Assembly (NCBI GenBank): GCA_045588655.1
Contig: JAZNEP010000007.1
Location: forward strand, 3,260 to 67,259
Direction of reading: 5' to 3'
Length of the DNA: 64,000 bases
Source: Lachnospiraceae bacterium
GTDB lineage: Bacteria; Bacillota; Clostridia; Lachnospirales; Lachnospiraceae
Shown here: positions 12,207 to 63,660 of the stretch, in pieces
Layout of the letters: each line of letters starts with the position of its first letter
Numbering within the stretch: the stretch's first letter is position 1
The notes under the pieces: model-generated
What the model was told of the DNA's origin: nothing
Database searches by the model: none
The model's input: the letters and a program-made list of their open reading frames with translations, nothing else
Program-made: the position numbers and the translations under genes

Positions 12207-12319
12207 GCGTGCTCCTTTAGTCTATAAACATTTATTCAAAAAATTTTACCTTATAAATTGATACCATGTCAAGAAAACGTACATACTAAACATTAGGAAA
12301 AATGAAAGGAAGGTTACGG

Positions 12320-13747
12320 ATGGAAAAGCTTTTTAACCTAAAAGAAAATGGGACAAGTGTAAAAACCGAAATTCTAGCAGGATTTACCACGTTTATGACC
12401 TTGGCTTATATTCTTGCACTGAATCCAAATTTGCTGACCGGATTTGGAGCGAACGGCGGTCAATCTCTTTGGAATGCAGTATTTTTATCTACTTGTATTG
12501 CGTCAGCTATTGCCATGTTTGCCATGGCTTTTTTGGCAAACAAACCATTTGCGCTGGCACCGGGTATGGGACTGAATAGTTTTTTTGCTATTGTTACATC
12601 CAATATAGCCTCTATTACTGGTCTGACTTATCTTGACGCATATCAGGCAGCTTTGACAATTATTTTAGTAGAAGGTCTTGTTTTTGTTGTATTGTCTTTG
12701 TCGAATGTGCGGGAAAAGATTGTGAATGCAATTCCACTAGGGATTCGTTTTGGAATTGCTCCGGGAATTGGTATGATGCTTTTAAATATAGGTCTTGGAT
12801 CTAATGCAGGAGTTTATAATGCAGAAGGTGATGTTTTTTATGTGTTACGCGATTTTTTAGGAAATCTGACCCCTTCTATTACTCAAAAAGCAATGCAAGA
12901 CTCCTATCCGAAGATGATACTGACAGTAATAACTATGTTTATCGGTTTTTTTGCGATGATCATTTTGTCTGTAAAAAAGGTACGTGCCTGTGTTTTTTAT
13001 GGTATGTTTATCTCATGTATCATATATTGGATAGGTGAAATTTGGTTTCTTGGTATAAATCCGTTTGCATCTCTTAACACAGCATCATTTATTCCACCTG
13101 TTCAAGATTTAGTCGAAACCACATTGTTTCAATTTGATATAAAAAGTTTTATTTCCATCGGATGGTTTACAGTTATTACTCTCATTCTTACATTTTGTGT
13201 GATTGATATGTTTGATTCTATCGGCGTATTTGTTGGAACTGCACAAAGAGCCGGATTGCTGGATGAAAATGGAAAAATGCCAAAAATGAAAGAAGCTCTT
13301 TTATCGGATGCGATTGGAACTTTGGCAGGTGCATGTACCGGAACTTCAACAGTCACCACATATGTAGAATCAGCCGCTGGTGTGGAAGTTGGCGGAAAAA
13401 CCGGTTTAACTGCACTTACAACCGCAGTATTGTTTCTTGCTTCCGCATTTCTGGCTCCAATCGCAGCAATCATTCCTGCTCCGGCAACATCTGCTGCATT
13501 AATCTATGTAGGAGTTCTGATGCTTGGCGTATTAAGTAAAATTGATTTTCAGGATATTACCCAGATGGTTCCTGTTACTTTGATGCTGATTGTGATCCCA
13601 ATTTCCGGATCAATCGGACATGGTATCGGTATTGCGCTCATCAGTTACTCTGTTTTATGTTTTTTTACAGGACATGCAAAGAAAGTTTCACTATTAACCT
13701 ATGTGATATCACTGATTTTCCTGATTAAATTTTTTCTTGTTGTGTAA
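12320..13747 (+). CDS. NCS2-family purine permease (AzgA/PbuG-like guanine-hypoxanthine permease)
   Basis: MEKLFNLKENGTSVKTEILAGFTTFMTLAYILALNP..., about 12 TM segments. Start at the ATG with AAGGAAGG SD. Confidence 0.85.
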   Translation: MEKLFNLKENGTSVKTEILAGFTTFMTLAYILALNPNLLTGFGANGGQSLWNAVFLSTCIASAIAMFAMAFLANKPFALAPGMGLNSFFAIVTSNIASITGLTYLDAYQAALTIILVEGLVFVVLSLSNVREKIVNAIPLGIRFGIAPGIGMMLLNIGLGSNAGVYNAEGDVFYVLRDFLGNLTPSITQKAMQDSYPKMILTVITMFIGFFAMIILSVKKVRACVFYGMFISCIIYWIGEIWFLGINPFASLNTASFIPPVQDLVETTLFQFDIKSFISIGWFTVITLILTFCVIDMFDSIGVFVGTAQRAGLLDENGKMPKMKEALLSDAIGTLAGACTGTSTVTTYVESAAGVEVGGKTGLTALTTAVLFLASAFLAPIAAIIPAPATSAALIYVGVLMLGVLSKIDFQDITQMVPVTLMLIVIPISGSIGHGIGIALISYSVLCFFTGHAKKVSLLTYVISLIFLIKFFLVV

Positions 13748-13813: not shown

Positions 13814-15004
13814 TTATGAACATACGTCTCTTTTTCTATTCTTTTTTTGTTCTTTATCCTGATACATACGTAAATCTGCTTCGTTTAATAAGTCTTGTAA
13901 CTTATATCCCTTTTCTGCATATATCATACCGACTGCTATTTCACAACAGATGTTGTCATCAAGTGTATTTAGTCGGTCAAGTTCCTGCTCCCAAGACATT
14001 TTTAATTGATTTATTTGTAGTTGTGTAAAATTACAAGCCACCACTAAAAATTCATCTCCGCCAATACGATAACCATGGACATCCGGTCCTGTTATCTTGC
14101 GAATACTATCTGCAGCTTTGATGATCAACTTATCTCCGGCTTCATGTCCATAAGTATCATTCATTTTTTTTAGGTCATTAACATCAAAGTTAAAAATGGC
14201 AATGGAATCAAGATGGTTATATTCCGTTTCCAACATCAACATATATTTTCTTTTATTATACATTCCTGTTAATCTATCGTGTTCACTGTCATAGACCAGT
14301 TTTTCACGCATCATACCATTTTCGATGTATAATCGAATCACACTAAGAAGTGTTTCTTCAGAGATGGATTCTCGATCCATTTTTTCATTTTCTGTATAAT
14401 ATAGTGCATAGTCTTGATCCGATATTGTACCTTTACAAAGTAGACCAAGCAAAGTGTCCGTAATAGGTTCCTTGCTGTAGGCCTGTGTGGCTTTATTGTA
14501 AGTAACAATGCGTTCGCTATTTTCATATTTTATTTTAAGCATCACTTTGTCTATTTTAAATAGATCTGCAAGAATCGGAAGCAATTCATGATAGGAACCT
14601 TGTAGTTTCTCAAGAATTGCAGTCTGAAACTTAGATAGCTTTTTGAAAAAAGACATATATTTGCTGACGTCACGATTTAAAGTCATATACTCCGTAATAT
14701 CCGTCAGATGATGAATCTGATAAAGATGCCCGTCTTTTTCAAATAGTCCCGATACCACTTTGAAATATAATCTGTTTTCATGATCGATGGTTTCCCATTC
14801 AATTGGCATATCAAGACTGAGCGTTGGACATTCCTCCAACCATACAAGAATATCTTTTTTGGTTTCACCGGTCAGATCACGATGGTATATTTTTTGAAAA
14901 AAGAAATCTGCATATGCAATTTTATTATGCTCCATATCAATTATGACAATTCCACCGCCGATATCATTTGTCATAAATCCGGCAATATGCTTTTTAAAAG
15001 CCAT
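13814..15004 (-). CDS. GGDEF diguanylate cyclase with N-terminal PAS-like sensory region
   Basis: GGDEF domain with intact RIGGDEFLVV motif. Track ORF starts on a TTG at 15025; the in-frame ATG (MAFKK...) with an AAGAAGG SD is preferred. Confidence 0.85.
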   Translation of the reverse strand: MAFKKHIAGFMTNDIGGGIVIIDMEHNKIAYADFFFQKIYHRDLTGETKKDILVWLEECPTLSLDMPIEWETIDHENRLYFKVVSGLFEKDGHLYQIHHLTDITEYMTLNRDVSKYMSFFKKLSKFQTAILEKLQGSYHELLPILADLFKIDKVMLKIKYENSERIVTYNKATQAYSKEPITDTLLGLLCKGTISDQDYALYYTENEKMDRESISEETLLSVIRLYIENGMMREKLVYDSEHDRLTGMYNKRKYMLMLETEYNHLDSIAIFNFDVNDLKKMNDTYGHEAGDKLIIKAADSIRKITGPDVHGYRIGGDEFLVVACNFTQLQINQLKMSWEQELDRLNTLDDNICCEIAVGMIYAEKGYKLQDLLNEADLRMYQDKEQKKNRKRDVCS

Positions 15005-15017
15005 ATCCATCACCTTC

Positions 15018-15320
15018 TTATTCAATCGTTAGAATGTCGGAAAAACCAGTCATCTCAAACACTTCCATAACTGTTTCGTTGACATGTGTTACAACCATGG
15101 TTCCTTGCTTACGATTCATGGTTTTTTGTGCTAATAGAATAACACGAAGTCCTGAACTTGCAACATAATGACAATTTGCCATATCAATAATCAGTTCTTT
15201 GATATCCTCGGAAAGCTCTCCTTCAAGTATGCCTGAGAGCTCATTCGCAGCCATAGTATCAAGACGTCCGTTTAAAAGAATCCATTTTTTATTTGCTTCA
15301 TTTTTTATATCAATATTCAC
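15018..15320 (-). CDS. STAS-domain anti-sigma-factor antagonist (SpoIIAA/RsbV-like)
   Basis: 100 aa; ...MANCHYVASSGLRVIL... with the conserved phosphorylatable serine context. GTG start preceded by GGAGG SD. Confidence 0.85.
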   Translation of the reverse strand: MNIDIKNEANKKWILLNGRLDTMAANELSGILEGELSEDIKELIIDMANCHYVASSGLRVILLAQKTMNRKQGTMVVTHVNETVMEVFEMTGFSDILTIE

Positions 15321-15777: not shown

Positions 15778-16557
15778 TTATAAATCACTTAAAAACTGTA
15801 AAGAACGTTTTAACTCTTCAAGTCCTCTTACTTCTACCAGAACACTTGTATCTGAAAAATGTGTGTTATAAATCTTTTTGAAATAGTTCCAATCAATTTT
15901 TCCCTCCCCAATAGGCAGGTGAAGATCCTGTAAAAAATCATTATCATTAATATGGATATGCTTTACATACGGAGCAAATGCGCTAATCCAATCATCAATC
16001 CTCGCCGGATCTCCAAATGCATGTGCATGTCCATAATCGAAACAAATGCCAAAATTAGAATAAACAGAAAGATTTTTAGCCAGTTGTTCCAATAATTCAT
16101 AGGACATATCAAACATATTCTCAATATAGATATTTAACTCATTATATTTAGAAAGTTTTTCTTTCCAATATACAGTATTTCGTTCCAACCATGATTGACA
16201 ATAACTTTCCGAATGAAAATTTGCAATAAAATTTGTATGAAAAACAATAGCGGATGCTCCGAGTTGTTTTGCAATCAACAGACTTTGTTCGACTCGTTTA
16301 TCTGAAACCATATAAATTTGCGGATCATCCGATGCTACATTTATATCAAAAAAGGCGCCGTGCATCATTCGATAGGCCGGTAAATCATTATGTATCATAT
16401 AAGACTGCACAATCTCCTGACATGCCTTATCATCTTCCAAAAGCGTAGGAACATAAAAATCATTGTATTCAAATCCACAATGATATGTTTGCGCCAGCAA
16501 AATACTTTGCTCTATTTGATTGTGTTCCGGAATCATCAGCAATTTCTCTATTTTCAT
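15778..16557 (-). CDS. sugar phosphate isomerase/epimerase (xylose-isomerase-like TIM barrel)
   Basis: 259 aa; ...AIVFHTNF...ICFDYGHAHAF... metal-binding pattern of AP-endonuclease-2/TIM barrel family. ATGA overlap with the upstream phosphatase gene. Confidence 0.7.
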   Translation of the reverse strand: MKIEKLLMIPEHNQIEQSILLAQTYHCGFEYNDFYVPTLLEDDKACQEIVQSYMIHNDLPAYRMMHGAFFDINVASDDPQIYMVSDKRVEQSLLIAKQLGASAIVFHTNFIANFHSESYCQSWLERNTVYWKEKLSKYNELNIYIENMFDMSYELLEQLAKNLSVYSNFGICFDYGHAHAFGDPARIDDWISAFAPYVKHIHINDNDFLQDLHLPIGEGKIDWNYFKKIYNTHFSDTSVLVEVRGLEELKRSLQFLSDL

Positions 16558-17669
16558 TTCTCTTTCCGACTCAGGCAGAGCATGGTGATATCGTCTACCT
16601 GACTTACCCCTTCTGCAAATTGATCGACACTATCATAAATCTTTTTAAGAAACAAATCAGATTTGTCAATATGACTTATGTTTTCATTGAGTGCTTTCAT
16701 CAATCGCTGTTCACTAAACAGTTCTTCCCTTTTGTTGATAGCTTCTGTTACACCATCCGTGTATAAATACAGAACATCTCCGGAGTCCAACCGGATGCTC
16801 TGCTGTTGATACGTAATATCTTCCATCATTCCGAACACAAGGTTTGCTTTCATCTGCATACGTTCAAAGAGCCCGTCTTTCTTCATTAAGTACGGCGGCG
16901 TGTGACCTGCATTCACGTAGGTAAGTACACTGGTATTTAAATCAAGAACACATAGAAATGCAGTAACAAACATTCCTTCGTCATTTTTGTAGCACAACTG
17001 ATTATTTACCCGATACGCCACTTCATCTAAAGCCAAACCTAAGGAGGCATAATTTTTTATATGTATTTTGGCCATGCTCATAAAAAGCGCAGCCGGAATA
17101 CCTTTGCCGGATACATCTGCAACAAGAAAACACAGATGTGACTCATCGATCAAAAAAATATCATAAAAGTCTCCGCCAACCTCTTTAGCTGGTCTTACAT
17201 TGGCCATTACATAAATATCTTTTAGTGCATGAAATGGTGAGAAATCTTTTTCCAGACAGCCAACCTGAATTTTGGTGGCAACAGCCAGTTCTGATTTTAT
17301 ACGTTCCTGTTCCCTTATCAGTGTGGCTGTTTTTTGGTACAGCATATTCATAAATGTACCGTAGACGCTCCTGTTTTTTTCTGCAATGGAAAAAAACTCT
17401 TCTTTGGAAATGTTGGAACAGATCACAGAACATAGGGCTCGCACTGTTGCACCACGTTTATCATCATTAATTAAACCAAGCTCACCGATAATGTCACCTT
17501 CACCCAGAAGATTTACTCGCTCATTTCTGTCATTTAATACTTCTGCCTGTCCTTGTTGAATGATGTACATTCCATCTTCGGAATCGGCTCCCAGTGTCAC
17601 AATATTTTCCCCTTTAGTAAAACGTACCTCACGCACCGTTGAAAATTCTTTAAAATGTTCTATATTCAT
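16554..17669 (-). CDS. PP2C-type serine phosphatase (SpoIIE/RsbU family) with N-terminal cyclic-nucleotide-binding domain
   Basis: N-terminal cNMP-binding-like fold (GDIIGELGLI...RGATVRA); C-terminal PP2C motifs GGDFYD, DVSGKG, YTDGVTEA. Confidence 0.85.
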   Translation of the reverse strand: MNIEHFKEFSTVREVRFTKGENIVTLGADSEDGMYIIQQGQAEVLNDRNERVNLLGEGDIIGELGLINDDKRGATVRALCSVICSNISKEEFFSIAEKNRSVYGTFMNMLYQKTATLIREQERIKSELAVATKIQVGCLEKDFSPFHALKDIYVMANVRPAKEVGGDFYDIFLIDESHLCFLVADVSGKGIPAALFMSMAKIHIKNYASLGLALDEVAYRVNNQLCYKNDEGMFVTAFLCVLDLNTSVLTYVNAGHTPPYLMKKDGLFERMQMKANLVFGMMEDITYQQQSIRLDSGDVLYLYTDGVTEAINKREELFSEQRLMKALNENISHIDKSDLFLKKIYDSVDQFAEGVSQVDDITMLCLSRKEK

Positions 17670-21540: not shown

Positions 21541-24039
21541 CTATAGCATTTGAGTGACTTCATCAATCGTACATTGATAAAGTTTCATAAGCTCATCATG
21601 CTGTGCTTTCACAAAAGCTAATTTTTCACTATTATTGTCGGCAAAATATTCTTTGCCGACTTTCTCTATCTTAGCTGCAAAATCTGAAAGTTTAACGGCT
21701 CCTATATTTAAGGATGCAGACTTTAAGGAATGTACATGAGTGATATAGTTTTTCCAGTTCTCCCCATCATAATTTTCGTTTAATTGCTGAACTTTATTTT
21801 TATATCCGTCACAATATATCTCCAGAAATTCATGATACATTTCTTCGTTGTGTCCACAATATACATAACCAACTTTTCTATCTAAGAATACTCCGATATC
21901 TTCACAGGTTTGGTCTTTCAACACCATGGAATTTTCTACACCTTTTGTAACATTTGCAACAGAAATTTTGTGTGACGGAAGATATTGCACAAGCATCTGT
22001 TCTAACTGTGTTATCTCGATCGGTTTACTGAGGTAATCATCAAATCCATTATTTAAATAGAGTTCTTTTGCTCCCGAAATGGCATTGGCAGTCAAAGCAA
22101 TTACTATCGTCTTTTTCTTCAAATCCATTTCAATCATTTTCTTTAGAGTCTCAATTCCATCCATCTCCGGCATCATATGATCAAGCAAAACAATGTCATA
22201 GTTATTTTGAGACATATATTTCAGACAATCTTCTCCGCTTACACAAGTTGTAACCTTCGCCTTGGTAGACTTCAAGAGACTTGACATAACAAAAAGGTTC
22301 ATATCATAGTCATCCACAACTAAAATTTCAGCGTTTGGAGCTATAAAGCTTTCAACATATGATTCTGTTAAATAAGCTGATTGAGTTGCTTTGAAATCAC
22401 CGATTTCTTGCGCATTAATAACCTGTTGTGGTATATAAACCGTAAATGTTGAACCTTCACCATATGTACTTTCTACCTCAATGCGACCATTCATACACTC
22501 AATTAATCGGTGTGTAATGGCAAGACCCAATCCGCTTCCTTCAATGCTTCGATTTTTTTTAATATCCAGTCTTTGAAAATTTATAAATAGCTTCTTTAAG
22601 TCTTCTTCTTTGATTCCTACTCCCGTATCAGTTACCTTAATGATCAAGGTTGTCATTTTATCAGAACGCTGCTCCTGTGTGACAGAGAATGAAATCTTTC
22701 CTTTTTCTGTATACTTTACTGCATTGTTAAGAATGTTAATCATAATCTGACGAATGCGAACGCTATCTCCGGATAACACACTTGGTAAGTTCTTATCGAT
22801 GTCTGTGTGAAAGGATAAACTTTTTTCTTTTACAGAATACAGAATCATATTAACAATATCATTCAGCAATCGGTCTAATTGATAATGCTCACTCACTACT
22901 TCAATTTTTCCTGCTTCAATCTTAGAAAAATCAAGAATATCATTAATTAAAGCTAATAAACTGGAGCTTGCATTTTTTATATTTTGAGAATAAGATTTAA
23001 TTTCACTATCCGTGCACTCACGCAATACCATTTCATTCATACCAATAATTGCATGAAGAGGGGTACGTATTTCGTGGGACATATTTGCCAAAAACGCACT
23101 CTTGGCGTGATTTGCATGTTCTGCTTCCTCTTTTGCAATACGTAATTCTTCGCTTTCCTGTGCCTTTTCTGCTGTAATAAAGAGATAAACACCTACAATA
23201 ATAAAAAGAATTAAAAGCAAACCAAATACCCATAAAACAAGTGTTGTAATATACATAACCCCTTCGGAAACCGCATCTTCCGGTACAATTCCTACCACGT
23301 ACATTCCATATTGTGATAACTCTGAAACCATCAGAAAATAATTGTTCTCTTTGCATTCTATGTAAGTACTGGCTGCTGTTGCTATAGTCATTTTGTTTCG
23401 AATAATAGCAAAAGAATCCTGAAGCTCTGTTTTCTGCCAAAATTCCTCACTATAGATATCTTCTATAAATGGTACGATGATTTCATGGTCTGCACTAGCC
23501 CAAAGAATCTGTCCTTGTCCATTATAACAGTCTAATCCAAATGTATTTTTTATAACCGCTTCATCATATAGCTTGTAGAGAACATACTTTACATTATCCC
23601 CATTGTATATCGGTACAGAAAACATCATACCCATATCTTTTCGATATGAAACCGCCTCATTTCCACGAAAAGAATCACGAATACCTTCAAATTCATTTAA
23701 TACAATAGGATTACCTGATATAATCTCTCCATCCAGTGCCACTATACCCCCGGAAATACCCTCTTGCTCCTGCATCACCGTTTGTAGTACCTGGTCCATC
23801 ATCTCACTGTTATTCTGAACTGCATTTGCGATATTTTTTAATTGTATAAATTGTATCATGATACTTTGCTCCACATGTTCTGCTAACATGTTTGCTTGTT
23901 CCGTCAACTGATTTTCAATATTATCGGTTAACATTTGGTTCATTTTATAACCAAGCATGGAACCAACAACCAGCATGATAACTAGCAGAAGGGTTATACC
24001 AAGTATCGTATGAGTACTTAATATTTTTCTATTTTTCAT
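21541..24039 (-). CDS. hybrid sensor histidine kinase / response regulator with C-terminal Hpt domain and periplasmic Cache-like sensor
   Basis: Two TM segments flanking an extracytoplasmic domain; HisKA H-box ANMSHEIRTPLHAIIGM; HATPase; REC (VVDDYDMN...LLDHMMPEMDG); Hpt (HSLKSAS). Confidence 0.9.
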   Translation of the reverse strand: MKNRKILSTHTILGITLLLVIMLVVGSMLGYKMNQMLTDNIENQLTEQANMLAEHVEQSIMIQFIQLKNIANAVQNNSEMMDQVLQTVMQEQEGISGGIVALDGEIISGNPIVLNEFEGIRDSFRGNEAVSYRKDMGMMFSVPIYNGDNVKYVLYKLYDEAVIKNTFGLDCYNGQGQILWASADHEIIVPFIEDIYSEEFWQKTELQDSFAIIRNKMTIATAASTYIECKENNYFLMVSELSQYGMYVVGIVPEDAVSEGVMYITTLVLWVFGLLLILFIIVGVYLFITAEKAQESEELRIAKEEAEHANHAKSAFLANMSHEIRTPLHAIIGMNEMVLRECTDSEIKSYSQNIKNASSSLLALINDILDFSKIEAGKIEVVSEHYQLDRLLNDIVNMILYSVKEKSLSFHTDIDKNLPSVLSGDSVRIRQIMINILNNAVKYTEKGKISFSVTQEQRSDKMTTLIIKVTDTGVGIKEEDLKKLFINFQRLDIKKNRSIEGSGLGLAITHRLIECMNGRIEVESTYGEGSTFTVYIPQQVINAQEIGDFKATQSAYLTESYVESFIAPNAEILVVDDYDMNLFVMSSLLKSTKAKVTTCVSGEDCLKYMSQNNYDIVLLDHMMPEMDGIETLKKMIEMDLKKKTIVIALTANAISGAKELYLNNGFDDYLSKPIEITQLEQMLVQYLPSHKISVANVTKGVENSMVLKDQTCEDIGVFLDRKVGYVYCGHNEEMYHEFLEIYCDGYKNKVQQLNENYDGENWKNYITHVHSLKSASLNIGAVKLSDFAAKIEKVGKEYFADNNSEKLAFVKAQHDELMKLYQCTIDEVTQML

Positions 24040-25126
24040 AAAGCTTTACACCTTCAACATACCAATCAAACGCATTTAAAAGCATTTCATCCGGCATATT
24101 TTCCCCTATATTGATTCTTAAATTGCCATCCATATCCATAACAGGACCGTAAAACACATCATAGGTTCCGTCCCAAAGTTCTTCCATTTTTTCTATTAAA
24201 ATTTCTTCCGTTCCTGCTTTTACATTTGTTGTAAGCGGCGCTAAATCAACAAGTCCTGTTTCTGCACCTTCCCAATATTGCTTAGATTGGAACTTTCCTT
24301 GCAGACATTTTAATAACTGCGGAGTGTAAAATTCCTCCCAGTGCCAAATAGCTGCTGTTAGGTAACTGTCCGGGTAGTCCTTGCTATTGTCCATGTTATA
24401 TCCAATTGACCATATTCCGCGACTTTCTGCCACATCAAGTGGTGCAACCGTATCACAATGCATAGCAAGAACATCTACATTATATTCATCAATCAGTGTA
24501 TTAGCCGCAATCGCATTTGCCTTGTCATCTGTCCAAGACTCACTCCAGTATACATTTACTACCGCATCCGGATTCACTGAACGCACACCAAGTGTAAATG
24601 CATTGATACCACGATTAACCTCATCAATAGGAAATGCAGCAACATATCCAATCGAATTGGATTCTGTTTGCAAACCGGCCACAATTCCACACAAATAGCG
24701 CATCTGATAGATTCTCCCGAAATAGGTAGAAATATTTTGTTCAGTTTTCACCCCTGTTGCATGGAAAAACATAATTTTTGGGTTTTTCTTTGCCACCTGC
24801 GAAATATAATCTCCATAATCAAAAGAATTGCATAGAATAATTTCGCAACCCTGATCAATCATCTCTTGCATGGTAGTAACACAAGTATCATCAAACGGAA
24901 CATTTTCTTTATAAATTATTTTTAAATTCAGCTCATCGGCCGTCTTACAGATACCTTCGAAATGAGACTGTCCCCATCCTTTATCATTAATAGTTCCGTT
25001 TAATATAAATCCAACTTTCGTTATTTTCTTCGTAACTTCAGTATCCTGTTCGTTACCATGCATCATAAGCATTCCAATGATAATAATTATCAAAACCGCA
25101 ATTGAAATTATGGTAATTTTTTTCAT
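24029..25126 (-). CDS. BMP-family (PnrA/Med-like) ABC-type substrate-binding protein
   Basis: ...KVGFILNGTINDKGWGQSHFEGI... typical of basic membrane protein family; N-terminal signal anchor. Track ORF begins on TTG; the internal ATG with a GAGGGTAGG SD is used instead. Confidence 0.8.
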   Translation of the reverse strand: MKKITIISIAVLIIIIIGMLMMHGNEQDTEVTKKITKVGFILNGTINDKGWGQSHFEGICKTADELNLKIIYKENVPFDDTCVTTMQEMIDQGCEIILCNSFDYGDYISQVAKKNPKIMFFHATGVKTEQNISTYFGRIYQMRYLCGIVAGLQTESNSIGYVAAFPIDEVNRGINAFTLGVRSVNPDAVVNVYWSESWTDDKANAIAANTLIDEYNVDVLAMHCDTVAPLDVAESRGIWSIGYNMDNSKDYPDSYLTAAIWHWEEFYTPQLLKCLQGKFQSKQYWEGAETGLVDLAPLTTNVKAGTEEILIEKMEELWDGTYDVFYGPVMDMDGNLRINIGENMPDEMLLNAFDWYVEGVKLYEK

Positions 25127-25153
25127 TGCCCTACCCTCATAATTCGTATACAA

Positions 25154-27055
25154 TTAGTTCGCTATACTGTGCATAATCTCTTTCAAAGCCAATGGTAAAA
25201 ACGGCTTTGTAATATAATCATCAACGCCATACTTTGCTGCTTTTTCCAGCGTTTTAAAATTCTTATCGCCTGTCATAAATACTACCGGAATATTATATTT
25301 TTTCTTAATATGAGACAATGTCTCAAATCCGTCCATATCCGGCATAACCAGATCCAATAATATCAGATTAATCTCCTGCTCTTCCAAAACTTTTAAAGCT
25401 TCTTTACCACTAAGAACACTTATAATTTCATACATCGGTTCATCTTTCATGATACGTTCTATCATTTTAATATTCATTAGTTCATCATCTATGACAAGCA
25501 CTCGTTTCTGAATAGATTCCGATTCTTTCAAAGCATAAGCTTTATCTTCGTCTATCATCTGAAGCATAATATCAGCTATCTCAGGATCAAACTGTATCGC
25601 TTTTCCCTTTTCGATTTCAGAACGCACAATCTGCTGTGGTAGAGATTTACGATAGCTTCGGTTACTGGTCATAGCATCATAGGAATCTGCCACTCCGATA
25701 ATACGCGCAATTTCCGGAATATTGTTACCCGTCAAACCATTTGGATACCCTTCTCCGTCAAAGCGTTCATGGTGAAACTTGGCTCCGTTGGCAATAGAAA
25801 GATCTTCATAAATATCCTTCAAAATATGATAACTGGTAATCGGATGTACTTTAATCTGCTCATATTCATCATCCGTCAGCTTGCCCGGCTTGTTAATAAT
25901 ACTACCCGGAACACGAATCTTTCCTACATCATGCAATAGCCCTGCATAATAGATGAGCTTCTGTTCATTTTCGCTTTTATTCATGCGCATTGCAATTTCT
26001 TTGGAATATTCAGCCACACGTAAAGAGTGACCATTGGTATAGTGATCTTTTGCATCAATCGTACGGACCAGTGCACGGATAATTTTCCGATTCATTTCTT
26101 CGATTTTTCGAGTACTATCGATTTCTTGATTTAATGATTGATTCATTCGAAGAAAAGTTATAATAAAGAACGCTATTATGAGAATAGAAATAACGCTACA
26201 TATAAAAATGTTCTGGTGCAATGTTGATCGTGCATCTGCAAATAATGCGTCATTACTGACAATCAACACAACACTCCAGTCATCCATAACCGTATCGAAA
26301 AATACGGTCATTGTTTCGCCCTGATAGTCAATCTCGAAACGTCCAATTTTTTGTGAATATACTTTATTCACCAACTCTTTTAACGTTGAATCCGCTTCTA
26401 AATAATTTTTTCCTTTTTCATTGATATCACTATGAGCAACAACTAAACCATTCTTATCAATTACAAATCCGTATCCGATATTATTCAGAGCAATTTTTTC
26501 AGTAATTTCCTGAATACGATCCATTTTGATATCTAAAGAAAGTACACTCTCTCCATCCTGAAGCATCTGACTGACAGATATCATAATTGTGTTTGTTTGT
26601 GCATCCAGATAGGGGGAAACAATAATAGGCGCACCTTTTGCCTGAGAGGCTACTATGTACCAATCTCTGGATTTTGGATTATAATCTGCATCCGGAACCC
26701 ATCCGATTCCATCGATATAGATTCCGTCAAACACACCGTAGATACCGGTGAAATTCTCATCTATTTCTTCTGTATATCGCTTAGATTCATAGACAAGAAA
26801 ATCTCGGATTTCCTCCGCTGTCGCGCCAGCATCCATCATATACTCCACAGATACGGCAGTAGTTTGTACAACGCTCTTACCTGTCTCAAGATACGCATGC
26901 AATTCTTCTTTTGCCTGTGCTAAATTACTAGAACCGATATCTCCAATATTTTTAACCGCATTTGAATTAAAGACAGAATAGTTAAATATTACCATAACAA
27001 ACAATGCAAATATAATACTTATTAAAGCAAATACATACCATTTTTTCTTTATCAT
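25154..27055 (-). CDS. membrane HD-GYP phosphodiesterase with extracytoplasmic dCache sensor and C-terminal REC domain
   Basis: TM, dCache-like (DWYIVA...), TM, then HD-GYP (LLHDVGK ... HHERFDGEGYPNG), then REC (VLVIDDE...LLDLVMPDMDG...KPF). Start at MIKKKW with GAGAGGA SD. Confidence 0.85.
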   Translation of the reverse strand: MIKKKWYVFALISIIFALFVMVIFNYSVFNSNAVKNIGDIGSSNLAQAKEELHAYLETGKSVVQTTAVSVEYMMDAGATAEEIRDFLVYESKRYTEEIDENFTGIYGVFDGIYIDGIGWVPDADYNPKSRDWYIVASQAKGAPIIVSPYLDAQTNTIMISVSQMLQDGESVLSLDIKMDRIQEITEKIALNNIGYGFVIDKNGLVVAHSDINEKGKNYLEADSTLKELVNKVYSQKIGRFEIDYQGETMTVFFDTVMDDWSVVLIVSNDALFADARSTLHQNIFICSVISILIIAFFIITFLRMNQSLNQEIDSTRKIEEMNRKIIRALVRTIDAKDHYTNGHSLRVAEYSKEIAMRMNKSENEQKLIYYAGLLHDVGKIRVPGSIINKPGKLTDDEYEQIKVHPITSYHILKDIYEDLSIANGAKFHHERFDGEGYPNGLTGNNIPEIARIIGVADSYDAMTSNRSYRKSLPQQIVRSEIEKGKAIQFDPEIADIMLQMIDEDKAYALKESESIQKRVLVIDDELMNIKMIERIMKDEPMYEIISVLSGKEALKVLEEQEINLILLDLVMPDMDGFETLSHIKKKYNIPVVFMTGDKNFKTLEKAAKYGVDDYITKPFLPLALKEIMHSIAN

Positions 27056-27086: not shown

Positions 27087-28529
27087 TTACTCAACTCGGA
27101 TTGTGTTAGCTCCTTTGTTCGTGTCAAATGCCACAAACTCTACAATTTCTTCTAAAAGCGTATCATAAATAAAGAGGTTGATTCCGTCATGTTCCATGGA
27201 GTAGTTCGAACCATCCATAAAGAGTCCTGCGACGTTCTCTCCGTTTTCGTTTTTTGCATAGGACAATTTGTATTCGTGACCATCATCAAGAATAAATGTT
27301 TCTTCATACATATCCGTCACTTGCACTCCCTCTGCTACAGGAACACCATTTTGAAGAAGAACAAGATAGCACCACTCGCCTTGCATATCATAGTTCGGTG
27401 CAATACCAAGTAAAGCAAGTGCAGCACGTTCATCATCAGTATACGTCATCGCATCGGTACATTTCATCGCAAACATCGTCACCCATTCTTTGCCTGCAAG
27501 TGCCTGAAAATACGTCTGCATATCAGAGATGCTAATCTGTTCACATTTATCTTTTTTGTGGTAAAAATATTTGCCATCTTCATGCCACTGTGCAAACGCC
27601 GGATTTTCACGTTTATCTTCAATCTCGTAATTTTGAGATAAGTATTCACCCATGTATTTGGTGACTTTTTCCGCCTGAAGGATATTGATATGTGCTTCTC
27701 CGTCAAATACTACATTCATATTTATAAAAGGAATATCATTCTCATCTGCAAATTCCGCAACCGAAAGATATAATTTTTGTCGTTCCGCATTTCCATTTGG
27801 TGTTTTTATGAGAATCAAATCCACACCTTCTGCTTTGGTTAACTCCACAATGTTACCAAGCCATTCTCTGGCTTTTTCCGGAAGAGCCTCTTTTTGTGTT
27901 TGAAGCATAACTTCCTCCGAAGGCATATCTGCATAGTTATGAGGTACAACAAATGGGGAGTATCCTTTATATACATTTCGTTTTTGATAGAACGAATTCA
28001 TTATCTTCTTTTCATCAAGCGTATTCCATGTATCATGATATTTTACAAGTTCAAAATAAAATGCGCCACGTTCATCTTTTGGAACCGCATCGCGAATCGC
28101 CAAGACCTTGTTCATACTCCATGGCAAATCATCCAAATTAATGTGGTTTACTCCCTCATCCTCATATGTATTACCATAAACTGTAAATACATCCAGTATA
28201 ATTGCCTTCGGATTTTGGTGCTTTAATGCCTCTTTTATATAATAATATGAAATCCAAAGTGGTTGCTCATTGGCACAAAAATCATAGGAAGTAATACCAA
28301 ACTCTTCAAAAAGTACATTAGGCGCAATGTCTGCATAAAGCTGGCTGGAACCTACAAAGACAAAATCCAGTGAGTTTTTCGGCTCCTGATAAAAACCTTT
28401 CACCTTGGAAGTAACATCATATTCAAGCTCAACACGTTTATCCTTAAGAACCTCTGTGGCTGTGACAAATAAGATAGCAAAAATCAGGACAAAGCATGTA
28501 AAGTGAAAGAAAATTTTTGTTTTTTTCAT
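27087..28529 (-). CDS. extracytoplasmic MBOAT-partner protein (DltD/AlgJ/DHHW-like)
   Basis: N-terminal signal anchor; about 480 aa; located immediately downstream of the MBOAT gene as is typical for O-acylation partner proteins. Exact family not recognisable by eye. Confidence 0.5.
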   Translation of the reverse strand: MKKTKIFFHFTCFVLIFAILFVTATEVLKDKRVELEYDVTSKVKGFYQEPKNSLDFVFVGSSQLYADIAPNVLFEEFGITSYDFCANEQPLWISYYYIKEALKHQNPKAIILDVFTVYGNTYEDEGVNHINLDDLPWSMNKVLAIRDAVPKDERGAFYFELVKYHDTWNTLDEKKIMNSFYQKRNVYKGYSPFVVPHNYADMPSEEVMLQTQKEALPEKAREWLGNIVELTKAEGVDLILIKTPNGNAERQKLYLSVAEFADENDIPFINMNVVFDGEAHINILQAEKVTKYMGEYLSQNYEIEDKRENPAFAQWHEDGKYFYHKKDKCEQISISDMQTYFQALAGKEWVTMFAMKCTDAMTYTDDERAALALLGIAPNYDMQGEWCYLVLLQNGVPVAEGVQVTDMYEETFILDDGHEYKLSYAKNENGENVAGLFMDGSNYSMEHDGINLFIYDTLLEEIVEFVAFDTNKGANTIRVE

Positions 28530-28540
28530 CGACACTCCTC

Positions 28541-29968
28541 CTAAAATCCGCCATAAATAAACTGCGCCGCATCATATCCCGGACCATAAATTCCAAAGAT
28601 TAATACCGCAAAGATTGCGATATATATAATTAAATAACGAAATATGATTCCTTGTTTTGTCAATTCTGCTCTCAATGACATTTTCGTCTGCAAATAGCTG
28701 ACAAAGAACATGGTGAGAATACCAATCATAAGAATCCATACATTTTTTGCATCTAGACCAAGTAAATAAATGGAATGATCCCACAAAATCCATGGATTAA
28801 AGGTAGTTACCATGCTTTTTATCATTGCAATTGCCTGCGATACGGATGACGCTCTAAAAAACATCCAAGCAATCATAACCAAAACAAAGGTGGTTACTTG
28901 TTTCCAAAGTCTATGTGAAAACGTGTTTCTATTGATATGAAATAGAGAAACAAATCGATTTCTTAATGGAGTAAGAATCTCTCCCATCATTTGATAAAAT
29001 GCATGCAAAAGTCCCCAAATAATAAAAGTGCTTCCAATCCCATGCCAGATTCCGCTTACAAAAAACGTAATAAAAAGATTTATATATTTTCTTACTCTTC
29101 CATTGCGATTTCCACCGAGAGGAATATAAATATAGTCTCTTAACCAGCTGCTAAGAGAAATATGCCATCGGCGCCAAAATTCTTTAATAGAATCCGAAAA
29201 ATACGGATGTGTAAAATTGTCTGCGAGGCGGATTCCTAACATTTCAGAGACACCTTTTGCAATACAAACACAACCATTAAAATCTGCATAAAGCTGTATA
29301 CTATACAGTACCCCAGCCAATATCATATACATACCGTGATAACTCTGATATTCTCCAAACAGTCGATTCACCATAATATTTGCTCGATCTGCAACCACAA
29401 GCTTTTGAAAATATCCCCAAAGCATAAGCTCAAATCCACCCACAAACATAGATACATCAAGACGATGGCGCACAGTCAGTTGACCGGAAAGCTGCGAATA
29501 TCGCGGAATCGGCCCTTGTAAAATTTGTGGGAAATAGGTAATAAACAGAAGATACTTAAAAAAATTATTCTCTGCATCTATCTTTTCTTTTTTTACATCC
29601 GTCATATATGCGATGATCTGTAGGGTATAAAATGATATTCCAAGCGGAAGAAGCCACGCAAAGCGGTCAATTCTTAAGTACGATGCAAGTATCGACCCGC
29701 TGGAAGCTGTTTTTAAGCCAAAAAGCAATCCTGTATTCAGAAGTATTACGCACCAATACAAGAGGCTTGATTGTTTGCAATACTTAGCCCATACATAGGA
29801 GGATAAGCTGCTAAATAGTATAAAAACAGAAAGTTTTGGCGATGCATATAAATAAAAAAACATACCCGCAAGGAGCAGCCAAATCCACTGCCCCTTGCCT
29901 GGTATGCTATAATACACAAAAATTGTAATAATGAAAAAGAGTAAAAAACTACCAGAAATAAAATCCAT
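28541..29968 (-). CDS. MBOAT-family membrane O-acyltransferase (AlgI/DltB-like)
   Basis: Polytopic membrane protein; conserved ...WRRWHISLSSWLRDYIYIPLGGNR... histidine motif of MBOAT. Confidence 0.85.
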   Translation of the reverse strand: MDFISGSFLLFFIITIFVYYSIPGKGQWIWLLLAGMFFYLYASPKLSVFILFSSLSSYVWAKYCKQSSLLYWCVILLNTGLLFGLKTASSGSILASYLRIDRFAWLLPLGISFYTLQIIAYMTDVKKEKIDAENNFFKYLLFITYFPQILQGPIPRYSQLSGQLTVRHRLDVSMFVGGFELMLWGYFQKLVVADRANIMVNRLFGEYQSYHGMYMILAGVLYSIQLYADFNGCVCIAKGVSEMLGIRLADNFTHPYFSDSIKEFWRRWHISLSSWLRDYIYIPLGGNRNGRVRKYINLFITFFVSGIWHGIGSTFIIWGLLHAFYQMMGEILTPLRNRFVSLFHINRNTFSHRLWKQVTTFVLVMIAWMFFRASSVSQAIAMIKSMVTTFNPWILWDHSIYLLGLDAKNVWILMIGILTMFFVSYLQTKMSLRAELTKQGIIFRYLIIYIAIFAVLIFGIYGPGYDAAQFIYGGF

Positions 29969-36003: not shown

Positions 36004-39000
36004 TTACAATTTTCTTTTAAAGGGTAGATTTATCATTAGCCCTAATCCCAATAGGGCGCAGCCAATAACTAAAAGCCATTTCGGATCAAAGAGCTCTCCT
36101 GTTTCAGGGGACTCATCTTTTTGAAGAAGTCGCAGGCTCTCTGCTTTTATAGCCTCTCCGACCTCTCCGATTCCTGCATAAATACCATAGGCTGAAAAAT
36201 GGTTTGTTCGAAACACAAAATAATTTTGATCCTCTTTTTCAATCTTTTTACCATAAATGAATTGTAGTTGATTACGATCTGTTAAAGTAACAGCGCATAT
36301 ATTTTGGTCCATCATGGTATCGGAAATTGGTATACTTACCTCTACTTTTCCATCACCAAAATTCGTAATCGGAATATTGCTCTTTCGTTCTACTATCTGG
36401 AGATCAAACATCGTTAGCTGCCCCTCTACCGGTTGCCCATATTCCTTTATTACCGCTAAACGCAAATCGTTTTCCTTTTTTAAATCATTCTTTACATAAA
36501 GCAAATATGGTTGATCATCATCAAGTACATCCGCAGTAATACGCTCTGCTCCAACGTAATTTGTACCAAGATCAATTGTAGTAACATATTCGATTGGCTG
36601 CTGAGATTCTACTTCGTTTTCCTCAGACGTCCCAATTGAGTCTGCTTCCTCTGTTGGTTCGGTTCCTTCTGTTTCAGCAGCTTCTTCAGAATTTTCATCT
36701 ACAGTCGGAATCGAAGTTGAAAACGTAAATTGCGTATCATAATCATCCAGTTTACCTAACGCCGGTGGTAATAATATTCCTGATATCTCATTTTCTCCCC
36801 AATATTCATAGGTTTCATAAGCATCAAAAGCATCCGGTAAAGCTGTTGTTAACGTATATACTTTATCATTCACACGAACATCCGCAGGAATCTCAATCAA
36901 TCCGGTTCTTTCATCCGGATACTGCGTACAATAAACCAATTGCGCATATCCTGAATCTTCTTCAGGAATCGTAATGACTAGCCCTCTAAATCCCAAGTAT
37001 CTTTCATCTAAAATCGTATTTGATTTTTCGATAGTGGCACTCGGTATTACAACTGTTTTGATATCTGGAAAAACGAGGTTACGATATCCGTAATTCTCAA
37101 TTCGTGTTGCTGTTTTTTCATAAGAAACAGCCGGAAGTGTTTTTTTATTTTGAAAGATTATGGTATCAGTAGCTGCCAATTTAAATGCACCTAAACCAAT
37201 CTCTGATACACTATCGGGTATAGTAATCTGAATTAGCGGACACATCGAAAATGCTCTGTCACATATCTTGGTTAGATTTTTTCCACCTGAAATCTTAGAC
37301 AAAGAGATACAACCACTAAATGCATCCTCTCCTATTTCAGTCAACTGATCATTTAACGTCACTTCAAGAATTTCAGGATGATTTTGAAAAACGCCACCTG
37401 CAATTTTTTTAACATTTTCCGGAAGATATATTCTTGCAGCATCTCCTTTATACGCCAAAAGAATACCATCTCCGACGATTAAAAAATCACTTCCATTTTT
37501 ATTAGCTTTCCATGTATCAAGATACTTGGTTCCTGAAAATGCTTCCGGCTCAATTGACTCAATCGTGGATGGAATTTCTACCTTGGACAAATTGTCACAA
37601 TGATAAAATGCACCATATCCTATATGTGTGACACCTTCCGGGATTACCACATGATGTGCACTACTCCTTGCAAACGCAAAATCGTCAATCGTATCTATCG
37701 TATCATCCATCGTAACGTTTTTAAATCCGGTTGCCTGATAATATTCTTTCTTTTGAATGATGTGATTACCTAAGTCCGGTGCAATAAAATCCGGTGTAAA
37801 CTCATCCAGTGCAGATACCTGCGTTTGCTGCGAATTCTCCCCGATATTTTCATCATATAAAATAACCGCATTTCCTGCTACTACCCTTGTCTTTCCGATG
37901 ACGTCAGCAGAATCCGGTCCATAATAGTCTGACACGTTTAATTTAGAAACATCCGCAGGATTAGAGGGATCATATAAATCTGCTTTTTCTTTCTGCGTAT
38001 CGGAACCCTCATTCTCGTCCTTTCTTTGTTCTTCTTGCGAATGATTATCTTTCTGTCCCGGCATAGAATCTTTATACATTTCACCAATCACATTTCCACT
38101 GACTGTTACATTTTCCTGTTCAAGCAAAAGAGACTGATTGGTCTCAAAGGCTTTTGCAAATTCATACGCCGGTGTTCCTTCCTGCGCAATAATGTTCAAA
38201 TCATAACAACCGTCAAATGCAGTACCGTGAATATCCATAACTGACGCCGGTAATGTAATATATTCCAATGATACACAATCCTCAAAAGCCTTAGCAGCAA
38301 TCTTTCGAACGGAATACGGAATTGCAATATCGCTTAAATTTTTACAATTTGAAAAGGAATATTCCGGAATGTAAGATAGATGCGGAGATAATTCCACTTG
38401 TTCAAGATTATCACATCCCCAGAATGCATAGCGCTCGATATCAGTAACGGAATCCGGCATATCAAAAAATTCAAATTCCCGCCCTGCAAATACCTGTATC
38501 AATTTTGTTTTATCCCGATTATATAACGCGCCATCAGAAAGCACAAAATAATCGTTTTCACCTAGTGTAACTGACTTTAGTTCACGATCACCTGAAAAAA
38601 CACCGGCTCCAAGTTCAACAATTGTCTTTGAAAATCTCACGGTATCAAGCTCAGGGCACATGGCAAAAGCCCCACTTTCAATTGTCTGTAGCCCTTCAGA
38701 AAAAATCACGGTATCAAGCAACGGGCAATCTCGAAAAGCACCGTTTTCAATTATTTCCACACTAGATGGTATGCGGACGGTTTCGATGTACGGATTACTT
38801 GCAAAAGCGTCCGTACTAATAATTCGAATCCCATTAGGAACAGACACGACCGAAGCCGTGCCTGTATAAGAAATCAATGTATTTCCATCTCTTTTAAATT
38901 CTACTTCCGGACTTAACGCGTTAGCAAATGACGCCGGAACCTGCGAGAAAGCAATTGCTAATGCCATAAATATGGCTCCCGCTATTTTTCTGATTTTTCT

Positions 39001-39006
39001 TTTCAT
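36004..39006 (-). CDS. cell-surface leucine-rich-repeat (BspA-type LRR_5) protein, 1000 aa, sortase-B-type substrate
   Basis: Signal peptide MKRKIRKIAGAIFMALAIAFSQVPASFA; multiple BspA-like LRR units (..AF..C..L..V.IP..V..IG..AF..); acidic linker; C-terminal SPETG-ELFDPKW-TM-KRKL sorting signal. ATGA overlap with upstream gene. Confidence 0.8.
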   Translation of the reverse strand: MKRKIRKIAGAIFMALAIAFSQVPASFANALSPEVEFKRDGNTLISYTGTASVVSVPNGIRIISTDAFASNPYIETVRIPSSVEIIENGAFRDCPLLDTVIFSEGLQTIESGAFAMCPELDTVRFSKTIVELGAGVFSGDRELKSVTLGENDYFVLSDGALYNRDKTKLIQVFAGREFEFFDMPDSVTDIERYAFWGCDNLEQVELSPHLSYIPEYSFSNCKNLSDIAIPYSVRKIAAKAFEDCVSLEYITLPASVMDIHGTAFDGCYDLNIIAQEGTPAYEFAKAFETNQSLLLEQENVTVSGNVIGEMYKDSMPGQKDNHSQEEQRKDENEGSDTQKEKADLYDPSNPADVSKLNVSDYYGPDSADVIGKTRVVAGNAVILYDENIGENSQQTQVSALDEFTPDFIAPDLGNHIIQKKEYYQATGFKNVTMDDTIDTIDDFAFARSSAHHVVIPEGVTHIGYGAFYHCDNLSKVEIPSTIESIEPEAFSGTKYLDTWKANKNGSDFLIVGDGILLAYKGDAARIYLPENVKKIAGGVFQNHPEILEVTLNDQLTEIGEDAFSGCISLSKISGGKNLTKICDRAFSMCPLIQITIPDSVSEIGLGAFKLAATDTIIFQNKKTLPAVSYEKTATRIENYGYRNLVFPDIKTVVIPSATIEKSNTILDERYLGFRGLVITIPEEDSGYAQLVYCTQYPDERTGLIEIPADVRVNDKVYTLTTALPDAFDAYETYEYWGENEISGILLPPALGKLDDYDTQFTFSTSIPTVDENSEEAAETEGTEPTEEADSIGTSEENEVESQQPIEYVTTIDLGTNYVGAERITADVLDDDQPYLLYVKNDLKKENDLRLAVIKEYGQPVEGQLTMFDLQIVERKSNIPITNFGDGKVEVSIPISDTMMDQNICAVTLTDRNQLQFIYGKKIEKEDQNYFVFRTNHFSAYGIYAGIGEVGEAIKAESLRLLQKDESPETGELFDPKWLLVIGCALLGLGLMINLPFKRKL

Positions 39007-43610: not shown

Positions 43611-43635
43611 CGCTGCTCTCCTCTGTCAAGAACTA

Positions 43636-63411: not shown

Positions 63412-63660
63412 CAAAAAAACGTCCCTGTCTAAATCAGGGACGAATCAATATCCGCGGTACCACCCGTATTCCTTAAAGTTATACACTTCAAGACACTCAA
63501 CGCGCGTAACGTGCGCATACGGCTCTGCCTACTGCTCTTTCAACAAAGCTGCTCCGGTGGGAAATTCAATCCACATCTGAACGTAAGGCGGCTTTCAGCC
63601 GGTGACCACCTCTCTCTGAACGAAAATGTATCTCTACTGACACCTTCATAGCATTTACAA
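63412..63660 (-). ncRNA. T-box riboswitch leader (probable Phe specifier UUC) with terminator/antiterminator
   Basis: Minus strand carries the T-box consensus AGGAATACGGGTGGTACCGCGG, immediately followed by the terminator GTCCCTGATTTAGACAGGGAC TTTTTTTG. Stem-I region has a loop containing CGUUCAG. Confidence 0.7.

Follow-up and report, generated by a model that had tools for sequence, protein, structure and literature searches.

A Bmp-family protein as predicted purine-base co-sensor of a hybrid kinase linked to c-di-GMP turnover in gut Lachnospiraceae

The three genes of the cassette

In gut Clostridia, very few signals are known for the many hybrid kinases and enzymes of cyclic di-GMP (c-di-GMP). 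We describe here a cassette of three genes in which a c-di-GMP phosphodiesterase (PDE), a binding protein of the Bmp family and a hybrid sensor histidine kinase are encoded side by side. It is located in a stretch of 64,000 nucleotides (64 kb), hereafter the window, taken from contig JAZNEP010000007.1 of a Lachnospiraceae bacterium (assembly GCA_045588655.1). A previous reading, made from the letters of the DNA alone, had claimed that the three genes are tightly linked, and they are indeed found at 21541-27055 as open reading frames (ORFs) that all run head to tail on the minus strand. Pfam matches every domain that this sequence-only reading had named, across all three genes. The features of the cassette, with the residues of each protein domain and the basis of each call, are the following.

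25154-27055, minus strand: gene 1, membrane c-di-GMP phosphodiesterase (PDE), 633 aa (ORF with ribosome-binding site (RBS), Pfam)
26210-26983, minus strand: extracytoplasmic dCache_1 domain of the PDE, residues 25-282 (Pfam)
25577-26071, minus strand: HD-GYP catalytic domain of the PDE, residues 329-493 (HD_5, 119 bits)
25178-25501, minus strand: C-terminal receiver of the PDE, residues 519-626 (Response_reg, 89 bits)
24029-25126, minus strand: gene 2, Bmp-family binding protein, 365 aa (Pfam Bmp, 186 bits)
21541-24039, minus strand: gene 3, hybrid sensor histidine kinase, 832 aa (ORF, Pfam)
23251-23949, minus strand: extracytoplasmic sensor of the kinase, residues 31-263 (AlphaFold2 (AF2) and Foldseek)
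22423-23106, minus strand: kinase core, HisKA and HATPase_c, residues 312-539 (Pfam; H322, N-box, G1/G2 boxes)
21991-22326, minus strand: receiver of the kinase, residues 572-683 (Pfam; phospho-acceptor D620)
21616-21831, minus strand: Hpt domain of the kinase, residues 737-808 (Pfam; phospho-histidine H770 in HSLKSAS)

The mechanical ORF of the PDE begins upstream, with a TTG at 27136, and the likely start is rather the ATG at 27055, which an AGAGAGG RBS precedes with a spacer of 7 nt. A gap of 27 nt separates the PDE stop codon from the start of the Bmp gene, an ATG preceded by a GAGGGTAGGG RBS, and the ATG of the kinase gene shares with the Bmp stop codon an overlap of 11 nt (ATGAAAAATAG), by which the Bmp and kinase genes are translationally coupled.

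From its N-terminus onwards, the PDE is composed of a first transmembrane (TM) segment (residues 6-24), the dCache_1 domain (61 bits in Pfam), a second TM segment (residues 283-301), the HD-GYP domain (119 and 78 bits for HD_5 and HD) and a C-terminal receiver (REC; 89 bits). An enzyme with this dCache/HD-GYP/REC order would be rare, as a response regulator doubling as a transmembrane receptor. The earlier reading hinged on functional HD-GYP residues, and the catalytic and phospho-acceptor residues are all present in the sequence: the HD motif and the HHERFDGEGYP motif are intact, with H343, H375/D376/K379, H404, H428/H429, G436-Y437-P438 and D457, and the receiver displays D523/D524, the phospho-acceptor D568, T595 and K617. 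The nearest relatives of the dCache_1 domain in the PDB are Mlp24, PctA and Mlp37, which are amino-acid chemoreceptors. The domains of the dCache_1AA type are recognized by an AA_motif made of Y121, R126, W128, Y144 and D173 in PctA numbering (PMC8915833). This motif is complete in the PDE, with the published spacing (Y125, R130, W132, Y149 and D175), D175 being aligned with an Asp of Mlp24 located 29 residues past the motif Tyr; the spacing of the dCache purine motif does not fit the same domain. All 13 of the 13 PDE orthologs, at 52-83% identity, display YRWYD and also keep the HD-GYP and receiver residues. We predict that this domain is a sensor of the amino-acid type, which would supply the second extracellular input that had been claimed for the cassette.

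The binding protein is assigned by Pfam to the Bmp family (PF02608; 185.6 bits for a cut-off of 24.1, over residues 44-322 of the 374-aa mechanical ORF). It has a single TM helix (residues 4-22) and no lipobox cysteine, no Cys being found among its first 40 residues. Its best PDB relatives, both over the full length and at 35-36% identity, are the Brucella protein 3s99 (6e-59) and AtzT (6pi5, 3e-58). The match to Med (2hqb) is at 8e-24, and close homology to the nucleoside receptors was not found, with 6e-9 for PnrA (2fqw), over residues 39-216 only, and 6e-6 for BmpD (6shu). AtzT co-purified with guanine, which it binds with a Kd of 110 nM, as compared to 2.5 uM for adenine, GTP being left unbound; it also accepts 2-hydroxyatrazine and ammeline, and adenine has been modelled in the 3s99 structure (PMC6834077). 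In AtzT the ligand is held in an aromatic sandwich of Tyr45 and Trp194, together with Ser97, the backbone of Phe98, Glu165, Asn218 and Asn220. These positions map to W51, S101, F102, E169, W198, H223 and D225 in the protein of the window, and the resulting WSFEWHD signature is that of 3s99 at 7/7 positions and that of AtzT (YSFEWNN) at four of the seven, the replacement of Tyr45 by Trp being conservative. The guess of the sequence-only reading, a PnrA-like protein presenting a purine nucleoside, has to be revised: because the pocket matches that of 3s99 and the PnrA match is weak and partial, a purine base is to be preferred over a nucleoside, and the most likely ligand that this comparison points to is adenine-like, as in 3s99 and AtzT.

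The kinase is arranged as a TM segment (residues 12-30), an extracytoplasmic sensor, a second TM segment (residues 264-282), HisKA (72 bits), HATPase_c (94 bits), REC (Response_reg, 81 bits) and Hpt (35.5 bits, for a cut-off of 24.6). The sensor has no match in Pfam, and since a phmmer search against PDB sequences gave nothing meaningful, its fold was taken from an AF2 model and from Foldseek. In this model (pLDDT 81.7) a long helix precedes two alpha/beta modules, and the best Foldseek matches, all of them dCache ligand-binding domains (Mlp24, Tlp3, PctA/B and dCache domains of histidine kinases), reach an E-value of about 3e-9 and a target-normalized TM-score of about 0.6; one homolog of the sensor, P0271, has a weak dCache_1 match in Pfam. 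The model suggests a divergent double-PDC/dCache fold, as in LuxQ, and by analogy we propose this domain as the docking site of the Bmp protein. Neither the amino-acid nor the purine dCache motif was found in it, the residues of the former being absent from its invariant columns.

Conservation of the module and the place of Bmp proteins between transport and signalling

A pattern scan, with one genome per GTDB species, gave at least 597 relatives of the Bmp protein, and the best 80 of them were retrieved as loci. In 65 of these 80 loci the Bmp gene, or genes, is placed directly upstream of the gene for a protein that carries the N-terminal sensor domain of the kinase, a recurrence of the gene arrangement that is far beyond chance. 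The hosts are mostly Lachnospiraceae, with Oscillospiraceae, Ruminiclostridium, Acetatifactor, Selenomonas, Phascolarctobacterium, Treponema and Fibrobacter besides, and nearly all come from gut or rumen metagenomes; judged from these loci, the module is widespread in gut and rumen anaerobes, common rather than rare. The closest relatives, with Bmp proteins that are 80-84% identical, have the identical PDE-Bmp-kinase cassette, single Bmp gene included, amid unrelated flanking genes, and the cassette is therefore an autonomous unit. The co-occurrence that the earlier reading proposed to look for is seen both in the linkage to the kinase sensor and, among the closest relatives, in the whole cassette.

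The single Bmp gene of the window is not the commonest arrangement. Of the linked loci, 58 carry a pair of paralogs, BMP1 and BMP2, which share about 40% identity, and seven carry only one Bmp gene. WSFEWHD is the dominant pocket among BMP1 proteins and BMP2 proteins carry WSYEWHN, the general pattern W/Y-S-x-E-W-H-D/N being kept in nearly all of about 130 kinase-linked Bmp sequences. When the 3′ end of the window Bmp gene (24029-24070, minus strand) is compared with locus L001 (9060-9098 and 10150-10188), it matches the BMP2 tail at 36/39 nt and the BMP1 tail at 28/39. The 36/39-nt tail may hint at a loss of BMP2 through recombination between tandem paralogs; other BMP1 proteins share this tail.

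What the kinase might control was approached by a census of the 43 loci that have 3 kb or more of sequence on either side, an enzyme being counted if found within 3.5 kb. A c-di-GMP enzyme is present nearby in 26 of these 43 complete loci (HD-GYP in 22, GGDEF in seven), and the neighbouring outputs take the forms dCache-HD-GYP-REC, REC-HD-GYP, REC-REC-HD-GYP and REC-GGDEF. In four loci without c-di-GMP enzymes (L027, L030, L037 and L043) a recurrent protein of about 265 aa is encoded 3′ of the kinase; it consists of an unannotated N-terminal region of about 135 residues and a C-terminal receiver, and is a possible alternative output.

Seen from the side of the sensor, the family is small. An exhaustive search of 1.84 billion representatives (a word-indexed search had given 13 matches, mostly truncated) found 221 clusters at 50% identity, for the most part hybrid kinases; among 148 members examined, 75 are of the sensor-kinase-REC-Hpt type. 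Bmp genes come upstream of two distant members (21-23% identity) and of a third member, P0136, a fourth contig being too short to show it. In P0136 the domains of the proposed relay are found within a single chain, which is preceded by two Bmp genes and reads sensor-HisKA-HATPase-REC-Hpt-REC-HD-GYP. Other fusions dispense with the kinase altogether, as sensor-HD-GYP (P0227 and P0235; L065 and L066) or sensor-GGDEF-EAL (P0261 and P0271). In Negativicutes (L065 and L066 from Phascolarctobacterium, L070 from Selenomonadaceae) such kinase-less sensor fusions are still flanked by Bmp genes, as one-step versions of the pathway.

Bmp proteins are best known from transport, and it is worth asking what separates those considered here from their relatives in ATP-binding cassette (ABC) importers. 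The kinase-linked Bmp proteins examined have an N-terminal hydrophobic helix, a TM anchor, and all are without the lipobox cysteine. Conversely, each of the 11 retrieved Bmp relatives without a kinase (11/11) has an L-x-G/A-C lipobox, and in all 11 of these kinase-free loci the genes for an ABC ATPase of about 510 aa, of which LSGGN is the BMP-type signature, and for two permeases come directly downstream of the Bmp gene. No BMP-type permease was found by tblastn, with the ATPase and permeases of locus L079 as queries, either in the 64-kb window or in any of 70 loci linked to a kinase. In a neighbour-joining tree the BMP1, BMP2 and ABC-linked sequences form nearly pure clades, although this tree, which is midpoint-rooted, does not settle whether the proteins linked to kinases arose only once. 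The ABC-linked lipoproteins retain the same pocket signature.

It seems natural, from this set of sequence characters, to see the protein of the window as most likely a former binding protein of an ABC transporter, turned into the dedicated co-sensor of a kinase. Kinase linkage, TM anchor and the lack of permeases in 70 loci all speak for the co-sensor role that the sequence-only reading had proposed, and the situation that would have told against it, a protein from an ABC transporter with no co-conservation with the kinase, is the opposite of the linkage seen in 65 of 80 loci. A clean evolutionary route would thereby be outlined, from transporter lipoprotein to TM-anchored co-receptor. A practical rule follows for telling signalling from transport Bmp proteins, namely the absence of a lipobox, a kinase downstream and no permeases; at present annotation gives both kinds one name, 'BMP family ABC transporter substrate-binding protein'.

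A proposed signalling path and its rivals

We consider it fairly probable that in this cassette a Bmp protein acts as purine-base co-sensor of the hybrid kinase, which through a phosphorelay would govern an HD-GYP PDE endowed with its own sensor of the amino-acid type. Anchored by its uncleaved TM helix to the outside of the membrane, the Bmp co-receptor would bind a purine base, with adenine or a related compound as the likeliest candidate, and would then dock, in a ligand-dependent manner, on the dCache-like domain of the kinase, as LuxP does on LuxQ, with a change in autophosphorylation as the outcome. Phosphate would pass from H322 to D620, then to H770 of the Hpt domain and finally to D568 of the PDE, and the phosphorylated receiver would change the hydrolysis of c-di-GMP, as happens from RpfC to RpfG. 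The PDE would in this way join a direct amino-acid signal, perceived by dCache_1, with a purine signal brought by the relay, both setting the activity of the HD-GYP domain. The co-conservation with HD-GYP enzymes and the P0136 fusion indirectly support the wiring from Hpt to the receiver of the PDE. We infer, from comparison of sequences, the contact between Bmp protein and kinase, the identity of the ligand, the transfer from Hpt to REC and the sign of each regulatory step.

Several points weigh against this scheme. All of its steps are deduced from sequence comparison and models. The identity of the pocket with that of 3s99 refers to a structural-genomics model in which adenine was modelled, and the binding measurements made with AtzT did not cover nucleosides (PMC6834077). 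Most relatives have two Bmp paralogs where the window has one, so that stoichiometry and mechanism may differ, and the dCache-like domain of the kinase could itself bind a ligand directly, without any Bmp protein. In the PDE the receiver is C-terminal to the HD-GYP domain, in the opposite order to RpfG. Finally, 17 of the 43 complete loci have no adjacent c-di-GMP enzyme, other receivers or second hybrid kinases coming next instead, and the kinase family is therefore not exclusive to HD-GYP outputs.

The ligand is where another explanation comes nearest. The same architecture might serve a nucleoside, a pterin, a flavin, a B6 vitamer, a triazine-like compound or some host or microbial signal, as the presence of the nucleoside binders PnrA, BmpD and BmpA in the Bmp family, the 2-hydroxyatrazine and ammeline taken by AtzT, and a putative B6-binder match in NCBIfam (weak, 60 bits for a 400-bit cut-off) would allow; the pockets of BMP1 and BMP2 also differ (F/Y and D/N), which implies some diversification of ligands. 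We find this somewhat unlikely, for the seven pocket positions are those of 3s99 with its modelled adenine, the base binders match at 6e-59 over the full length where PnrA reaches 6e-9 over residues 39-216, and the pocket signature is the same in the ABC-linked lipoproteins. One might go further and deny the Bmp protein any ligand, making it an accessory or scaffold for the folding or activity of a kinase whose dCache-like domain would sense the signal, a fold that usually binds small ligands. Med, the Bmp-family lipoprotein (2hqb, 8e-24) that KinD is reported to require, would be a case in point, and no ligand of Med turned up in the literature searched, as far as the accessible part of it goes. 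Against this stand the pocket residues, strictly conserved in nearly all of the about 130 kinase-linked Bmp proteins, a conservation not expected of a pure scaffold, and a kinase sensor without the residues of the amino-acid motif; such a ligand-independent role is quite improbable.

It is improbable, too, that the main target of the kinase is encoded elsewhere, the receiver of the PDE being an orphan or the partner of another kinase and adjacency reflecting co-regulation only. The Bmp-kinase core does stand without a c-di-GMP enzyme beside it in the 17 complete loci just mentioned, and one Hpt domain can serve several regulators, but the PDE-Bmp-kinase unit is kept in differing flanks, nature has produced a single-chain kinase-REC-Hpt-REC-HD-GYP and direct sensor-HD-GYP fusions, and within 64 kb there is only one further receiver, of the LytTR type, 25 kb off. 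There remains the most conventional view, an ordinary binding protein for an ABC importer encoded elsewhere, with kinase adjacency incidental or with a dual role. Pfam annotates Bmp as ABC transporter substrate-binding, our view of this genome is limited to 64 kb, and some binding proteins do serve transporters and receptors both (review PMC8050422). Yet we hold it very improbable, considering the TM anchor and missing lipobox, the 70 kinase-linked loci with no BMP-type permease beside them, the separate lipobox clade formed by the ABC-linked relatives, the translational coupling of the Bmp gene to the kinase gene, and the observation that, where a binding protein acts on a sensor kinase, its gene is placed next to genes for signalling (review PMC8050422).

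Precedents, meaning and surroundings in the window

Sensor kinases that depend on a binding protein have been reviewed, with LuxPQ, TorTS, XylFII-LytS and HptAS as examples (review PMC8050422). LuxP-LuxQ, which senses autoinducer-2 in Vibrio, TorT-TorS, XylFII-LytS and HptA-HptS resemble the present case in that a type-I binding protein is encoded beside a kinase and not beside a transporter. In LuxQ and HptS the extracytoplasmic docking domain is dCache-like, as in our model of the kinase sensor, and LuxQ and TorS, hybrid kinases as is the kinase here, pass phosphate into a phosphorelay (PMC8050422). The differences are several. The binding protein of the cassette belongs to another family, Bmp (PF02608), is TM-anchored rather than soluble or lipidated and usually comes as two paralogs; the Hpt domain is part of the kinase chain, whereas in the Lux system LuxU is a protein of its own; and the output would be c-di-GMP hydrolysis, not transcription, with a purine base as proposed ligand. 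LuxP loaded with autoinducer-2 turns LuxQ away from kinase activity.

For the downstream half, the likeness is with RpfC-RpfG of Xanthomonas, where an HD-GYP response regulator is governed by a hybrid kinase that contains REC and Hpt (PMC5391125). RpfG is however a soluble REC-HD-GYP protein, and the regulator of the cassette is transmembrane, in the order dCache, HD-GYP, REC; RpfC senses the diffusible signal factor (DSF) directly, with a short N-terminal sensor, where we propose a separate binding protein. RpfG is activated by phosphorylation. In NspS-MbaA of Vibrio cholerae and in ScrB-ScrC, a membrane c-di-GMP enzyme has a dCache-like periplasmic domain by which a binding protein of the periplasm governs it, and these pairs are the closest analogues of the sensor-HD-GYP and sensor-GGDEF-EAL relatives; they involve neither kinase nor phosphorelay, their enzymes are GGDEF-EAL proteins, and their binding proteins belong to SBP_bac_8 and SBP_bac_3.

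Bacillus subtilis offers a partial precedent, in which a member of the Bmp family assists a kinase: Med is reportedly required for KinD activity, according to what is accessible of the 2011 work of Banse and colleagues. Med is a lipoprotein, farther from the window Bmp protein than the purine-base binders are, and KinD feeds the Spo0A phosphorelay, whereas the kinase of the cassette is linked to c-di-GMP turnover; to our knowledge, med and kinD are not adjacent genes. AtzT and 3s99 share with the window protein the aromatic sandwich and the same Ser and Glu hydrogen-bonding residues, but they belong to ABC transporters, unlike this TM-anchored, kinase-linked protein. Chemoreceptors, kinases and c-di-GMP enzymes are known to respond to purines and amino acids outside the cell (PMC11245519, PMC8915833). 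In dCache_1PU sensors such as McpH the purine sits in the dCache pocket itself, whereas here it would act indirectly, through the Bmp protein; the dCache domain of the PDE, for its part, fits the motif of the dCache_1AA sensors.

Each part of the module has a precedent, and the combination was not found described in the literature searched. The sequence-only reading had called the architecture undescribed, and this stands as far as those searches go, tempered by the partial precedent that Med and KinD, in the accessible part of that work, provide for a Bmp protein at the service of a kinase. Our searches found no description of the Bmp family as kinase co-sensor with HD-GYP wiring, nor of the conversion of a lipoprotein into a TM-anchored, typically duplicated co-receptor, nor of a private dCache-like sensor family with a transmembrane dCache/HD-GYP/REC terminal regulator; neither term, Bmp or HD-GYP, occurs in a review of 2021 on signalling through binding proteins (PMC8050422). 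We put forward, as a tentative proposal, that an unrecognized class of receptors extends over gut and rumen anaerobes of at least four phyla, made of tethered, non-transporting Bmp co-receptors for purine bases, often paired as BMP1 and BMP2 with differing pockets, a private dCache-like sensor and wiring to c-di-GMP by phosphorelay or direct fusion, the HD-GYP enzyme of the present clade being a coincidence detector for amino acids and purines. If true, nucleobase availability would be a major lifestyle cue, between motility and attachment, for commensal Clostridia, and the Bmp family would join those binding proteins that are already known to work through receptors. The module offers a testable signal, a purine base plus amino acids, with the full path from cell surface to second messenger.

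As for the surroundings, a convergent chorismate synthase gene lies downstream of the cassette. On the other side, a gene (27087-28535, minus strand) for a 482-aa protein with one N-terminal hydrophobic stretch and no Pfam or NCBIfam match precedes the PDE gene by 31 nt, a gap that contains no terminator-like site. It is itself directly downstream of the gene for an MBOAT O-acyltransferase (28541-29968, minus strand), of which the 482-aa protein may be a DltD/AlgX-like partner. These two genes were considered as conserved partners of the cassette and rejected, being absent beside it in relatives. Within the 3′ end of the upstream gene there is a candidate promoter.

27100-27127, minus strand: candidate sigma-70-like promoter, TTGACA-16 nt-CACAAT (weak consensus match)

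In a promoter and terminator scan of the region, promoter-like sites did not exceed the expectation from shuffled sequence; it is nevertheless plausible that the cassette has its own promoter, because the upstream genes differ in relatives. An Rfam scan found no riboswitch near the cassette.

The idea that the window contains no other c-di-GMP or REC gene had to be abandoned in view of two genes, a GGDEF gene at 13814-15025 and a LytTR gene at 49467-50174. The former (minus strand) encodes a diguanylate cyclase of 403 aa, with 247 unannotated N-terminal residues and no receiver, and adjoins the gene (12302-13747, plus strand) of a nucleobase permease of the Xan_ur_permease family, 481 aa in length. 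This pair is 7-9 kb from the cassette. That a purine or nucleobase permease and a c-di-GMP synthase should occur together so near to a PDE module with a putative purine sensor may not be mere chance. The latter (minus strand) is a LytTR-type response regulator, 25 kb away, with family-less proteins on both sides; it has the only other receiver that Pfam and a custom REC hidden Markov model detect in the 64 kb.

Farther away, a cyclic-nucleotide-binding domain is joined in one protein to a SpoIIE/PP2C phosphatase domain (16554-17669, minus strand), and the genes of two very large BspA-type leucine-rich-repeat surface proteins of 1000 and 1535 aa (36004-44706, minus strand) closely follow a sortase gene in the direction of transcription. 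Towards the 3′ end of the window, at 63433-63658 on the minus strand, there is a T-box leader (106 bits).

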